Source of the DNA: Eledone cirrhosa
Lineage: Eukaryota
Direction: 5' to 3'
Assembly (NCBI GenBank): GCA_964016885.1
Contig: OZ024759.1
Span: 20,894,001 to 20,958,000 of the forward strand
Length of the DNA: 64,000 bases
Part shown: in pieces, positions 2,319 to 62,864 of the stretch
How the letters are laid out: the number at the start of each line of letters is the position of its first letter
Position numbering within the stretch: position 1 is the stretch's first letter
The notes under the pieces: generated by a model
What the model was told of the DNA's origin: nothing
What the model saw: the letters and a program-made list of their open reading frames with translations, nothing else
The model's database searches: none
Made by a program: the position numbers and the translations under genes

Positions 2319-2513
2319 TAACAAACAGGGTGTGGTAAGATACCAGGTGGACCATAACGCACCAGAGTACTTAATACTTAGGGTAGTAGAGTGGGTAATA
2401 GGAAAAGAGTCAGGACCCCGACGGTTGAGCTCCGGCCGTTTAGACAGCTAGATCAGAATTCAGATCTCGAAAAGGCCGGAGCTCAGCCGTTGGGATCCTG
2501 ACTCTTTTCCTAT
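2319..2513. mobile_element. Foldback element family C (Penelope-like), copy 1
   Basis: GTGGTAAG..CCAGGTGGACCATAACGCACC..GTAGTAGAGTGGGTAATAGG body plus terminal inverted arm, in (TA)n. Confidence 0.7.
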
Positions 2514-2530
2514 ATATATATATATATATA

Positions 2531-2732
2531 TAGGAGTAAGTAAGACCCCGACGGCTGAGCTCAAGCCGTTTCGACGGCTAATTCTGTACTCGAATTACAG
2601 AATTAGCCGTCGAAACGGCTTGAGCTCAGCCGTCGCGGTCTTACTTAGTCCTATTACCCACTCTACTACCCTAAGTATTGAGTACTTTGGTGCGTTATGG
2701 TCCACCTGGTTCCTTACCACTTTTCCCTCGCT
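2531..2732. mobile_element. Foldback element family C, copy 2 (opposite orientation)
   Basis: Reverse complement of family C; palindrome centred ~2594; TA flanks. Confidence 0.7.
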
Positions 2733-3074
2733 ATATATATATATATATATTTATACTCAATACTTAGGGTAGTAGATATATATATGTGTGTGTGTGTATG
2801 TTTCTGTGTGTAAAAAGTAAACAGAAATAACAAAGCAAACGACGCAGTACAATGAAGAAATATATTAGTTTTAAGCTTGATATAGTAGGAAAAGAGTCTT
2901 AACGTTTCGGATGGTAGTCCTTCATGAGAAAATAGAATGTGAAATTAAAGAAGAAATAGAAAGATAGAGAAGAGTGAGCAGTGGCATATATATATATATA
3001 TATTGTGTGTATTTATGTACATATAATAGCACCACTGACGATGTTGCAGATGTGCAACGAAAGAACTTTGTTAG

Positions 3075-3268
3075 ACTATATATATGTGTTTGTGTCTATA
3101 TTATATCTGTATTTTTTACCGTTGGTCAGTCAATGGTAGCATTGAGGACCGAATAAATTAAATTAACCGATATAAAAGACACAGAAGCGAAAACCAACCA
3201 AACAGTGAGTGTGTTCTGTTATTAATTCTGGTAATATTATTACACAAATACGACCCTCTCCAAGTATA
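3075..3268. mobile_element. Dispersed ~190-bp TA-flanked repeat of unknown class
   Basis: Near-identical to 54545-54731, partial copy at 51080-51195. Confidence 0.7.
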
Positions 3269-3301
3269 ACCATATATATACATATATATATAACTAAGTA
3301 A

Positions 3302-3777
3302 TGTTCAGAGCCATGCTCAGCATTCTCGTGTAGCACCCATCCACCATCTGAGTAAGTTTCTTAGTCAGTGTCCAAGTCTCAGACCCATACAGCAGCACAG
3401 ACTCCACTACAGCAATGAAGAGGTGGATTTTCAGGTCTTTACGAAGGTTCGACTCCCACACCGATCTCAAGCTGTGGATTAAAAACTCAGAGCTGTATGG
3501 GAGCCTCCCAAAAGTCAGCTCAAAAGTGACACAGAGGAGACTGAGGTTAGCTGGACATGCTCACCGACATCCAGAGTTGACATTGCACTCAGTGCTCCTT
3601 TGGGAGCCCCTACATGGACACACTAGAAGAGGAAGACCAAGGTTAACGTATGTTGATGCCCTAAGGACAGACACTGGTCTGTTGGAGACGCAGGACATGG
3701 CAGCGATAATGAGGGACAGAGACCGCTGGAGAGAACTCGTCCATGGATCTCGGGAATTTTACCCGCCTTAGAAAAGA
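3302..3777 (+). mobile_element. RTE-clade LINE 3' fragment with 5' inversion and 12-bp TSD
   Basis: 3302-3479 minus strand encodes ..ESVLLYGSETWTLTKKLTQMVDGCYTRMLSMALNI; 3478-3771 plus strand encodes IKNSELYG..RRLRLAGHAHRH..RRGRPR..DRDRWR; TSD ATAACTAAGTAA at 3290-3301 and 3778-3789. Confidence 0.9.
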
Positions 3778-58173: not shown

Positions 58174-60559
58174 ATCCTTGGTCCAATCTGTTAATCAGTT
58201 CTTTTACTTTCCGTCTGAAGTTGTGACCAGTAGATAGTATCTGCAATGGAAAGACCAATGGAAACATTATTTCATTTGTCCGATCTAATGACACCTTTCG
58301 TTATATATATATATATATTGCACTCGGTAGATTGTATCAGCAATGGAAACATGGTTTCCTTGGTCCGATCTGATGATCGGCTCCTTCCCTTTCTCTTTTC
58401 TGGGGTGTTGGTCAGATTGCTGTAAGCAAGTCCTTCTCTTACTCACTTTGATGTAATTCATGTGTGGGCAGTTAGAGGTGACATATGAGAGGTTGTGTAC
58501 GTGTGTGTTGTGGTGGGGGCTGACTGTTTCTGTCGGAGGTATCGGTTTGGGTTTGTGGGGGAGAGAGAAAAATGATGTTGAAACTTCCATTTCATATGTA
58601 ACACACAACAGAGTATAAGGATATATATATATATATATATATATATATATATATTTGTGTGTATACATGCATATATATGTACATCTATATTTGTATATCG
58701 GTTTCAACACACGTTTTCAGATAAAGAATCTTGCTAAACAAATTCAGAAACAAAATATATATATATACATATAATGTGCTTGTATGTACCAACATATATA
58801 TATATCGTATGCATATATTTGTATATGTAAGCGTGTGTGTGTGTGTGTGTATATATATATATATATATATATATATATATGTGTGTGTGTGTATGTATGT
58901 GTGTATACAATAATGTGTATGTGTGTATGTATGTGTGTATACAATTATGTGTATGTGTGTATGTATGTGTGTATACAATTATGTGTGTGTGTGTGTGTAT
59001 GTGTGTATACAATTGTGTGTGTGTGTATGTATGTGTGTATACAATTATGTGTGTATGTATGTGTGTATACAATAATGTGTGTGTGTATGTATGTGTGTAT
59101 ACAATTATGTGTATGTGTGTATGTATGTGTGTATACAATTGTGTGTGTGTGTGTATGTGTGTATACAATTGTGTGTGTGTGTGTGTGTGTATGTATGTGT
59201 GTATACAATTATGTGTGTATACAATTATGTGTGTATGTATGTGTGTATACAATAATGTGTGTATGTATGTGTGTGATATCTTAAGGAGTTTTTATATATG
59301 AAGTAATATATGTAATGTTCGTTTGTCATTTCTAAAAGATCTCGAATAAGATAATGGTAGATTTGACTACAGCAGGCAAGAACCATCAAAGAGAGGGCTG
59401 AAGACGGGTGTTAGGGTGGGCTTTATAATTTTGAGAGGGGGGGTATCCTCTGGTGAATAGAGTAATGTTTGTAATTTTGGCAGAGGTGTATAGGGTGGTG
59501 TGTATAAATTTGTGGTGGGGCTGTAACCAGGGTGGTGGGTAAAGTTTGGTGGGGCTGTACCAGGGTGATGGGTAGAATTTCGATGTGGTTGTATAGGGGG
59601 GACAGGTTTTGTTGGTGAAACGTGGGTGGGAGAGATAGACGGAGAGGAGGGAAAATGAGAAATAGTGTGTGTACATATAGATACACACACACACACATGT
59701 ATATATATATATATATGTATATATATATATATATATATATATATGTATATATATATATATATATATATATATATTTATATATATATATATATATATATAT
59801 ATATATATATTTATATATATATATATATATATACATATATACATTTTTACAAATATATACATATGTATATACCCCCCCCCCCCCCCTCGCACACATATGT
59901 AGATAGATATACATAGATATTGAACACATATATATATATTTATATATATCTATATATATACACACATATATATATATATGTATATACCTATGCAACTCTC
60001 TCACTTCGTATGTGTGTGTGTATATAAATATGTGTGTATATATATATATATGTGTGTATATATATATATACGTATATATATACATATATATATATACGTA
60101 TATATATACGTATATTTATATATATATACGTATATATATATAGGTATATTTATATACGTATATTTATATATATATACGTATATATATATAGGTATATTTA
60201 TATACGTATATTTATATATATATACGTATATATATATAGGTATATTTATATACGTATATATATATATATATATATATATATATATACGTATATTTATATA
60301 CGTATATATATATATACGTATATATATATACGTATATATATATATATACGTATATTTATATACGTATATATATATATATACGTATATATATATATATACG
60401 TATATTTATATACGTATATATATATATACGTATATATATATATATATATATATATATATATATATATATATATACGTATATTTATATACGTATATATATA
60501 TATACGTATATTTATATACGTATATATATATATATATATATACGTATATATATATATCT

Positions 60560-60848
60560 ATCTATCTAAGGCGGGTAAAATTCCCGAGATCCATGGACGA
60601 GTTCTCTCCAGCGGTCTCTGTCCCTCATTATCGCTGCCATGTCCTGCGTCTCCAACAGACCAGTGTCTGTCCTTAGGGCATCAAAATACGTTAACCTTGG
60701 TCTTCCTTTTCTAGTGTGTCCATGTAGGGGCTCCCAAGGGAGCACTGAGTGCAATGTCAACTCTGGATGTCGGTGAGCATGTCCAGCCAACCTCAGTCTC
60801 CTCTGTGTCACTTTTGAGCTGACTTTTGGGATGCTCCCATACAGCTCC
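60560..60848 (-). mobile_element. RTE LINE 3' fragment, near-identical to 3490-3771
   Basis: ELYGSIPKVSSKVTQRRLRLAGHAHRH..REFYPP; (TAGA)-like tail; embedded in TA tract. Confidence 0.9.
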
Positions 60849-60881
60849 ATACGTATATATATATATACATATATATACTTA

Positions 60882-61577
60882 TCATCACCTCCACGTCATG
60901 CAAATCTCTCAGATCCCTCGGCAGCTTGTTGAAGAGTTGAGGGCCCTTGAATCCCAGGCTATTGCAATACCTGCTCCTTATTCTAGATGTGGAAGACGGG
61001 ACCTTTGGCACCACACAGTGACGTCCTGTTCGACGGTTGGTCCAGCTCCCAATGCCAAAGTTTGGTGCTATTCCCTCCAGGATTTTCCACATGTAGATCA
61101 CTGCGTATCTCTCCCGTCTTCGTTCCAAGGAGTAGAGGTTCAGTTCCTTTAGCCTCTCCCAGTAGCTTGCCTCCTTCATCGTGGCAATCCTCTTGGTGTA
61201 GCTTCGCTGGATTGCCTCAAGCACCGTGGTTAGTTTGACACTATGGGGTGACCACAACTGGGAGCAGTAGTCCAGACGGCTTAGGACAAATGTCCTCCAT
61301 AGTGTCAACATGGTGTCTCAGTCTCTTGTCCGGAAAGTCCTCAAGATCCAGCCAGCGAGTCGTCTGCACATTGTCGACACTTTCATGTTGTGTGAAGAAA
61401 AATATGCATCATCGCTCATGTCTATACCCAGGTCTCGTATCGATTTTGACACGGGGATATCGGTCCCTCCTGGTCCTGTGTAGTTGTGTTCTACTATATT
61501 TGTGTTTGCAGGTTTGTTTGGAGGTTTGTATTGTAGGGCTTGGAATTTGCCAGCATTAAACTGCATGTTGTTTTCTA
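60882..61577 (-). pseudogene. CR1/L2-group LINE RT C-terminal fragment
   Basis: [40 protein letters not shown] motifs; in-frame stop at 61318. Confidence 0.88.
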
Positions 61578-62698
61578 TACATATATATATATACATATAT
61601 ATATATATATACATATATACACATATATATACATATATATATACATATATACATATATATATATATATATATATATATATACATATATATATATATATAT
61701 ATATATATACAAATATATATATATATATATATATATATACAAATATATATATATATATATATATATATACAAATATATATATATATATATATATATATAT
61801 ACAAATATATATATATATATATATATATACAAATATATATATATATATATATATATATATATATATATACAAATATATATATATATATATATATATACAA
61901 ATATATATATATATATATATATATATATATATATATACAAATATATATATATATATATATATACAAATATATATATATATATATATATATATACAAATAT
62001 ATATATATATATATATATACAAATATATATATATATATATACAAATATATATATATATATATATATATATATATATATCCCTCTCTCTATGTATATGTAT
62101 GCCTGTGTATTCTAAATAGCCTGTTATGTAGTATTAATCATGTATGTATGTATGTATTAGATATACAATACCTCCCCTTCCACCTATGTTTTTCCTTGTA
62201 TGGTATAACGTAACTTATGATTTATAGAGCATGTAATAACTACAATGATATATATACTGGCAATATGTAGAAACATGGCAACCTCTTACATCGGTCGACT
62301 ATGCTACATGGACATTACATAATACCTGACGATCTGTGTGTATGTATATGTATATATATATATGTGTGTGTATGTATAAACACGTATATATTTATATATA
62401 TATTTATATATATATTTATATATATATTTATATATATTTATATATATATATATATGTATAAACACACTCTTACACACACATATATATATATATATGTGTG
62501 TGTGTATAAACACGTATATATATATATGTTATATATATATGTATACACGTGTATATATATGTAATATATATATATAAACACTCACACTCTCACACACACC
62601 CACACACACACATATATATATACATGTATATATGTAATATATATATAAACACACTCACACACACACATCTACTTTTATATATATATATATATATATAT

Positions 62699-62864
62699 AA
62701 CGAAGGAAATGTGGTAAGGAACCAGGTGGACCATAACGCACCAAAGTACTCAATACTTAGGGTAGTAGAGTGGGTAATAGGAACGAGTAGGACCCCGACG
62801 GCTGAGCTCAAGCCGTTTCGACGGCTAATTCTGAACTCAGCCGTCGGGGTCCTACTCGTTCCTA
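62699..62864. mobile_element. Foldback element family C
   Basis: Body plus short inverted arm ending CCTA-(TA)n. Confidence 0.8.

Follow-up and report, generated by a model that had tools for sequence, protein, structure and literature searches.

The window considered here is a stretch of 64,000 nucleotides (nt) of the Eledone cirrhosa genome (assembly GCA_964016885.1, contig OZ024759.1, positions 20,894,001 to 20,958,000, forward strand) containing eight foldback insertions, each with arms in inverted orientation, which are related below to a Penelope-like element (PLE). An original prediction, made from the letters of the window, had reported these copies, referred to here by their first positions or by number (Table 1); all eight were located where it had placed them, within TA-rich repeat, with a distinct turn-around point in every one and an inverted arm halting at CCTA or TCAT against the TA repeat in each. 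Positions in the element are counted from the A at which short arms tend to end (+1). The arms end outwardly at site A (+60, CCTA) or at site B (+138), 78 nt beyond site A, and the predicted cut of a hammerhead ribozyme falls between +41 and +42.

A 15-nt stem motif matched the window 15 times at no more than 3 mismatches, against 0.14 matches by chance. The GAAAC...GTC arm, which had been read as the 3′ half of a hammerhead, was recovered as an exact motif, GGCTTGAGCTCAGCC, in five copies (2531, 26048, 26735, 38580, and 62699); the copies at 2319, 4768, and 53860 carry older variants of this motif, and the short arm of 62699 is without GAAAC. The CUGANGA half is indeed missing from every window copy, because all of them stop downstream of it. 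The tail-bearing arm lies on the minus strand in five of the eight copies. In copy 2, the site-B arm holds the predicted hammerhead 3′ half (3′ strand of stem II, GAAA, stem III, GUC cut site, and 3′ strand of stem I), followed by the 78-nt tail with a bulged hairpin, and base 2591 is G on the element strand versus C in the parent, likely a copy of the cap. The arms of copy 3 are separated by approximately 55 unrelated bases, and copy 6 has three arms, with a 67-bp (base pair) tandem duplication.

Table 1 Arms and fragments of the foldback insertions in the window
Feature	Positions	Strand
Copy 1 (older subfamily), tail-bearing arm to site B	2319..2458	-
Copy 1, short arm to site A (+60) against TA repeat	2459..2512	+
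Copy 2, site-A arm extending to +1	2531..2590	-
Copy 2, site-B arm from +3	2596..2731	+
Additional (ninth) tail fragment, +69 to +91, missing from the original prediction	2754..2776	-
Copy 3 (older subfamily), site-A arm	4767..4830	-
Copy 3, site-B arm	4886..5027	+
Copy 4, site-B arm, truncated near +17	26049..26170	-
Copy 4, site-A arm	26167..26224	+
Copy 5, site-B (long) arm, truncated near +56	26737..26821	-
Copy 5, site-A arm from ~+7	26822..26875	+
Copy 6, site-B arm	38580..38714	-
Copy 6, pair of sense arms in tandem, the first from +7 to ~+71 and the second from +7 to site A	38715..38835	+
Copy 7 (older subfamily), site-A arm	53859..53921	-
Copy 7, site-B arm	53922..54069	+
Copy 8, site-B arm	62700..62837	-
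Copy 8, short site-A arm from ~+28, without GAAAC	62832..62864	+

The attribution to a PLE was borne out genome-wide by a parent with a frame for a reverse transcriptase (RT) and an endonuclease. Extension in the 5′ direction from one junction gave 99 longer arms and then the full element, a 3,531-bp tandem unit, in arrays of up to approximately 4.5 units, with an intact frame of 717 amino acids (aa) beginning at +232. Both the ribozyme 5′ half and the RT/GIY-YIG frame that had been anticipated upstream were thereby found, the half reading UUGANAA and not CUGANGA. RT and nuclease share a single frame: the RT carries a YRDD motif, with RDD invariant in 107 homologues, and the C-terminal nuclease carries a VIY-YIG motif and invariant Y, Y, G, R, H, and E, its motifs lying at residues 591–700, after the RT. 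The Naiad clade, with its N-terminal endonuclease, was rejected because of this order. The 717-aa protein had 2,049 homologues among 7,996 candidates scored; a search with the first 180 residues, in which 150 of 14,979 candidates were scored, yielded many with open frames near 784 codons. A Pfam search of the protein returned 0 families, and a PDB sequence search likewise gave nothing useful; the best homologue, P0002, carries PF01541, which we take to be GIY-YIG. PLEs are the closest mobile relatives of telomerase, and the structure model (predicted local distance difference test score, pLDDT, 93) had TERT 3du5 as its best fold match (E 2.5e-8); the matches listed in this fold search were all polymerases. 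The motifs RWR, DKT, CNCPDRSIC, CNLC, and CKH are present and agree by eye with the published Hydra alignment, and no cysteine pair was seen by eye within the nuclease core, i.e., no CCHH. In an unselected set, TA flanks 49 of the 55 ends at site A and 48 of the 56 at site B, i.e., the target is (TA)n, and the element shows the Penelope traits of a partial tandem arrangement (pseudo-long terminal repeat, pLTR), an inverted truncated copy, and a one-sided tail. By its motifs, target, and domain order, the element is an endonuclease-containing (EN+) PLE of the Hydra clade, and its intact frames suggest that the family is apparently active or was recently mobile.

In the 3.0-Gb assembly around the window, the exact 29-nt core of the arms is present at least 23,267 times, and 40 evenly spaced 10-kb stretches contained 19 arms in approximately 11 insertions. 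Contigs from public runs (three runs of one study) carry identical TA-abutting ends and span one turn, and therefore the family is no assembly artefact. A miniature inverted-repeat transposable element (MITE), of fixed size and with matching terminal inverted repeats, was rejected, since the ends are A and B, the turns vary, and the arms range from 19 nt to several units. A non-LTR retrozyme was rejected as well, because the unit is 3.5 kb long and coding and the short copies lack the ribozyme 5′ half; such retrozymes are described, in the available parts of the source, as non-coding tandem monomers of 170–400 nt with a full ribozyme each (PMC7229834).

The endpoint of the inverted arm, which the original prediction had considered fixed, is indeed fixed, but so is the other outer end, and both correspond to internal TAT sites of the parent, located between the pLTR and the frame and separated by the 78 nt that constitute the tail. 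A set of 176 de-duplicated pairs included 150 with both ends classifiable (in the other 26, an end was diverged, deleted, or read through), and these comprised 149 AB, 1 BB, and 0 AA. A pattern search for short foldbacks that permits every A/B combination gave 491 matches; 49 of the first 50 inspected had a TA end on one arm and a read-through on the other, and the remaining one (L183) did not appear as a non-AB pair in the larger set. Additionally, 14 of 19 long insertions fetched were two-armed with both ends visible, and 14/14 were AB. This genome-wide pairing supports the proposal that both DNA ends prime at fixed internal sites. The reading that we favor, with a probability of approximately 0.7, is that the foldbacks are 5′-truncated two-armed insertions, both ends of a cut TA repeat having primed a single RNA, one at A and the other at B.

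Both sites carry TAT, matching the target. At the same time, an internal TA as the sole determinant of the site had to be abandoned: TAT at +83 and +103 is unused by arms at least 92% identical, and therefore TA pairing alone does not fix the priming site. The bases after each site fold into two 4-bp stem segments, separated by a 2-nt bulge on the 3′ side and closed by a short loop, beginning 8 nt (A) and 6 nt (B) after the start of the TAT. Each pair of the stem after A is kept in 97.5–99.4% of 314 copies, in which subfamily changes fall in the loop and bulge and no covariation was found. The whole 78-nt tail folds no better than shuffles (z 0.18, -0.36, and -0.45), and only the local bulged hairpins fold. 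It is likely, judging from these predicted folds, that the bulged hairpin after each TAT positions the enzyme. The twin sites with their hairpins fit the situation in PAc, a Poseidon element of Anolis, whose tail is delimited by a pair of internal start sites and for which cutting and extension of both strands and a predicted dimer are described (Frangieh et al. 2024; PMC11167929, available parts).

A single fixed, MITE-like loop and random endpoints were both sought genome-wide, and neither was encountered: outer and inner ends are non-random, and even the commonest turn, a GTAC palindrome at +2 to +5, is shared by only 17 of the first 50 listed short foldbacks. A GTAC turn is expected to be the commonest when two identical complementary DNA (cDNA) ends anneal. 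Among 83 selected junctions, 55 had short insertions built from nearby sequence, as would be typical of end-joining repair. Those 17 perfect turns could be cited in favor of a snap-back of one cDNA to site A, a MITE-like DNA palindrome, or an assembly artefact, but these explanations are very improbable. The A arm is longer in L092, L094, and L095 and the B arm in L096 and L098, the difference reaching kilobases; since either arm may be longer, snap-back from the B arm is excluded, and the frequent further 5′ extension of the A arm contradicts the whole group. The asymmetric ends, the existence of an RT parent, and the agreement of the public-run contigs oppose it as well.

The inner ends form two walls, the first of which was assessed on 85 arms of 70 loci, taken in genome order and chosen by the core alone (30 loci plus 40 fetched), with only 5′ ends used. 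The ends of 76 of these arms lie between -4 and +19, none lies between -5 and -32, and 9 arms extend further; microhomology may account for part of the ends seen at -1 to -4. In the sequence type whose parent has C at -1, arms reaching +1 have G 333 times, C 1,055 times, and A or T 258 times at this position, and 15 of 30 viewed C arms were long compared to 0 of 30 G arms. In the other type, in which 57 of 59 long copies have T, the base at -1 is G in 3,045 cases and A or C in 3,526, and some of these C's complement a central G. The next base was G in eight of ten unselected arms ending at +1. An untemplated G has been interpreted as the cap in L1 and SVA (PMC4859970, available parts). A TATA-like box, TATTTAAA, lies approximately 30 nt upstream of +1 in young subfamilies only. 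The transcript thus likely starts at -4/+1, inside the approximately 35-nt loop II of the predicted ribozyme, with the extra G as a trace of the cap; such a start would be the reason why short copies never hold the ribozyme 5′ half. A splice acceptor or spliced leader at +2 (a pyrimidine run plus AG) was set aside, since the viewed junctions had no common upstream exon or leader. Some junctions (L151, L373, L386, and L268) contain A or T runs of up to approximately 16 nt at the +1/-4 end, perhaps through slippage or untemplated addition.

The second wall falls at the predicted cut; its counts were made by eye on the first 50 foldbacks of each of two pattern searches. Among 525 foldbacks turning no more than 20 nt from the G run, the first 50 included 19 double stops at +42 with 1–6 extra bases, 6 blunt joins, 7 with one arm to +39, 15 at a GAGCTC palindrome, and 3 others. 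A pattern also admitting stops within the G run gave 387 foldbacks, and in their first 50 there were 20 double +42 stops with 1–6 extra bases, as well as blunt joins (8 exact, 4 mutated). One arm was longer by 1–3 nt in 9 of these foldbacks and was cut back into the run in 6, no foldback had both arms cut back into it, and 3 were of other kinds. It is improbable that the two walls reflect pausing of the RT at structured RNA, or longer palindromes that were deleted symmetrically, instead of RNA ends. The position of +42 at the edge of the G run, one base from stem III, would suit a pause, and the instability of palindromes and the frequency of GAGCTC turns would suit deletion; however, the double stops lie at +42, not within the G run nor at +41/+40, the wall at -4/+1 is situated in a loop and has the extra G, and long arms cross both walls freely.

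The two arms stop jointly at the cut. Approximately 1.8% of arms end at +42, so that independence predicts approximately 4 double and approximately 400 mixed cases; approximately 155 (107–208) double cases were seen, and a +42 arm with a partner reaching +8 was found in at most 98 insertions, approximately 20 of which are longer arms with a point change. Paired stops so far above independence imply that both arms follow one RNA end, equal to the predicted cut, and point to one RNA primed twice and to ribozyme cleavage in vivo. The same numbers bear on the possibility, which we consider unlikely, that each arm was copied from a separate RNA by an asymmetric dimer and that the arms became alike by later conversion. 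Two RNAs would explain the duplicated sequence without strand displacement and would suit long arms of greatly differing length, as well as the arms of differing subfamily type in L081, but not joint +42 stops approximately 40 times above independence, nor mixed cases below expectation.

Priming of one RNA by both ends is also consistent with the likeness of the arms. In L314, L317, L324, L326, and L327, the arms of one long insertion are mutually closer than to any other sampled insertion, and both arms belonged to one subfamily in 87 of 89 exactly typed pairs. In the youngest group, the arms are no closer mutually than to other insertions, a comparison that cannot discriminate there. The insertion at L081:1380-2005 has differing subfamily tags near site A, possibly through a template switch or a two-RNA event.

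Long copies behave differently at the first wall: among 30 loci with the frame start (27 insertions, two arrays being matched repeatedly), 27 read at least 40 nt past +1 and 3 stop downstream. Their template likely had no end at +1 and would be either a circle closed at the cut or a tandem read-through RNA; a circular template has been proposed for PLEs (PMC4209133, available parts). Short arms exceed long ones by approximately 9 to 1, and a Penelope with an internal promoter is known from Drosophila virilis (PMC2377424, available parts), both of which might speak for short foldbacks as a non-autonomous family, whose transcripts would start at an internal promoter at +1 and be copied anew by the autonomous enzyme, in place of an origin from the full-length RNA each time. 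We regard this as quite unlikely, however, because every short subfamily type seen also has long copies, the short tail-bearing arms end at B without a second hairpin beyond it, and the junctions vary. In L321:700-2160, the tail-bearing arm repeats approximately 220 bp around +94 to -80 two to three times, which suggests template jumps, and L308-L309 (G000:C1:437195500-437215300) is one insertion of approximately 4.5 tandem units, 99.9–100% alike and with intact frames, representing a very recent event.

The parent carries what is predicted to be a self-cleaving type I hammerhead core with the U3-A8 variant: stem I, UUGANAA, a G-C pair plus stem II, GAAA, a 6-bp stem III, GUC, and stem I, with a three-way centroid fold. 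UUGANAA was present in 112 of 121 full motifs, position 7 being any of the four bases (UUGAGAA 52, UUGACAA 40, UUGAUAA 17, and UUGAAAA 3), the remainder being CUGAGAA (5) and others (4). In an alignment of 10 sequences, 90.8% of stem cells were paired, and three stem II pairs were changed on both sides, a score reached by 1 of 500 shuffles, i.e., modest support. The CUGAGAA core, with a C3-A8 mismatch, was seen in one subfamily (genome G000; L282:636-763 and L178:2497-2624), and one may speculate that A-to-I editing at position 8 would give it a canonical-like pair. A distant relative in metagenome contigs (L398-L400; 36–37% protein identity) has a canonical CUGAGGA approximately 160 nt after its frame. 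U3-A8 is a published variant of PLE hammerheads, including that of Schistosoma (Cervera and de la Pena 2014; PMC4209133); the available parts of that paper describe the same type I fold in the pLTR, the G10.1-C11.1 pair, a palindromic loop III, and opposite-strand pairs, and state that there was no in vivo evidence of cleavage. The present ribozyme differs in its full-length stem III and in the approximately 35-nt loop II holding the likely start site.

The parent element, the A+B pairing, the two inner walls, and the extra G, all observed directly, would be accommodated by the following course of events. A protein dimer would cut both strands of the TA repeat, and each DNA end would start copying one RNA, at A and at B. 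The copy begun at B would pass A and displace the first copy, which is why, on this proposal, both arms have one sequence. Both copies would run off the RNA 5′ end, which would be the capped start at -4/+1 in most cases or the ribozyme cut at +42 in approximately 1–2% of arms, and the two cDNA ends would be joined by end-joining repair, via short homologies (GTAC, AATT, and GAGCTC) or short insertions. For long, more-than-unit arms, the likely template would be a circular RNA or a tandem read-through RNA, in which +1 is not an end. With roughly even chances of being correct, the wider picture is that the genome is a base-exact fossil record of the Penelope RNA cycle: one RNA with two hairpin-marked priming sites, of which the capped form would have left tens of thousands of dead-end stubs at the start and the cut form stubs at the cut, i.e., genomic evidence of germ-line hammerhead cleavage. 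Only tandem read-through RNA could, with the start site inside the ribozyme, be cut twice and circularized to give long copies.

Several points weigh against this interpretation. All of the evidence is genomic sequence. The pairing set was chosen partly via a B-arm query, which left AA under-tested in those loci, and the independence estimate is rough, combining patterns of differing stringency. Approximately one third of the G's at the first wall may derive from the partner arm (by eye, approximately 10 of 30 and 12 of 30), and where an arm has no partner, T precedes +1 as often as G does. The older subfamily lacks the TATA-like box, and because this box overlaps stem II, there is a separate reason for its conservation. 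Microhomology was not enriched at the turns, with at least 2 nt in 10 of the 83 selected junctions. Two of the 89 typed pairs are discordant, and arm likeness could stem from conversion between the arms after insertion. None of the 30 frame-bearing loci stops at +1, which calls for a second class of template. The covariation sample comprised only 10 related sequences, an Rfam search gave no hammerhead match, and the mismatched CUGAGAA core is confined to one subfamily in which +42 stops nevertheless occur.

Twin priming, as originally proposed, was upheld insofar as two ends prime; unlike in L1, both arms copy one and the same sequence. The process in L1 is alike in that both target ends prime on one RNA, the 5′ part is inverted, and small indels occur at the turn. 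According to what Ostertag and Kazazian reportedly described in 2001, its second site is variable and each arm copies a different part, whereas in the present element neither site varies and, upstream of A, the overlap between the arms is complete. The elements of the Hydra clade are alike in having a single frame with RT followed by a GIY-YIG-type nuclease, RW(K/R), DKT, CxCx5C, CxxC, and CxH motifs, a (TA)n target, tandem and inverted 5′-truncated copies with the tail at one end, and a hammerhead in the pLTR; the inverted copy with a one-sided tail was already described there as a Penelope trait (Craig et al. 2021; PMC8557442). They differ in that the unit is generally less than 3 kb with a tail of 30–40 nt, against 3.5 kb and 78 nt here, and Hydra-1_Obim has a canonical hammerhead core, against U3-A8 with a 6-bp stem III. 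Three sequence strings of the present element were unmatched in the text of that supplement, in which long runs are incomplete, so this is likely another family; pairing counts and inner walls were not found in the available parts of the paper. PAc, which belongs to another clade, uses mostly uncleaved RNA, a likeness to the present element; its starts are reported as non-homologous to the cut DNA, whereas both carry TAT here, it gave no reads ending at the ribozyme cut, where genomic arms stop here, and one-A-one-B pairing is not addressed in the available text (PMC11167929). Penelope of D. virilis shares the pLTR promoter, a partial tandem flanked by inverted repeats, and a short repeat before the frame, and differs in its TATA-less promoter with an intron and a 34-bp repeat, no intron having been shown for the present element (Schostak et al. 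2008; PMC2377424, available parts).

The clade, target, inverted copy, one-sided tail, two start sites, and U3-A8 are thus already published, as the available parts of these papers show. In the literature searched, which mostly excluded subscription papers and preprint supplements, no prior report was found of the one-A-one-B pairing rule, of a start wall with an extra G, or of a paired stop at the ribozyme cut. Note that the origin of the inverted ends and one-sided tails of Penelope is stated as open (PMC8557442), and that in vivo cleavage by PLE hammerheads had not previously been seen (PMC4209133 and PMC11167929), as far as the available parts of these sources go. The element is of a known kind, and its stubs give unusually exact, testable evidence on this open mechanism, with base-level predictions: starts at A (+60) and B (+138), transcript start at -4/+1, cut after +41, and one RNA for both arms. 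Moreover, this genome contains tens of thousands of small palindromes that repeat finders could file as MITEs or short interspersed nuclear elements (SINEs) but that are retroelement stubs.

The window also contains other repeats. A 123-bp tandem repeat occupies positions 9610-13534 (32 copies, 98% matches). At 4362-4772, a repeat with a tRNA-like start is present in two tandem copies (214-bp period); it is likely a SINE and is also found inside L091. The stretch at 3290-3790 resembles the 3′ end of the reverse transcriptase of a long interspersed nuclear element (LINE), and a similar stretch flanks L020.

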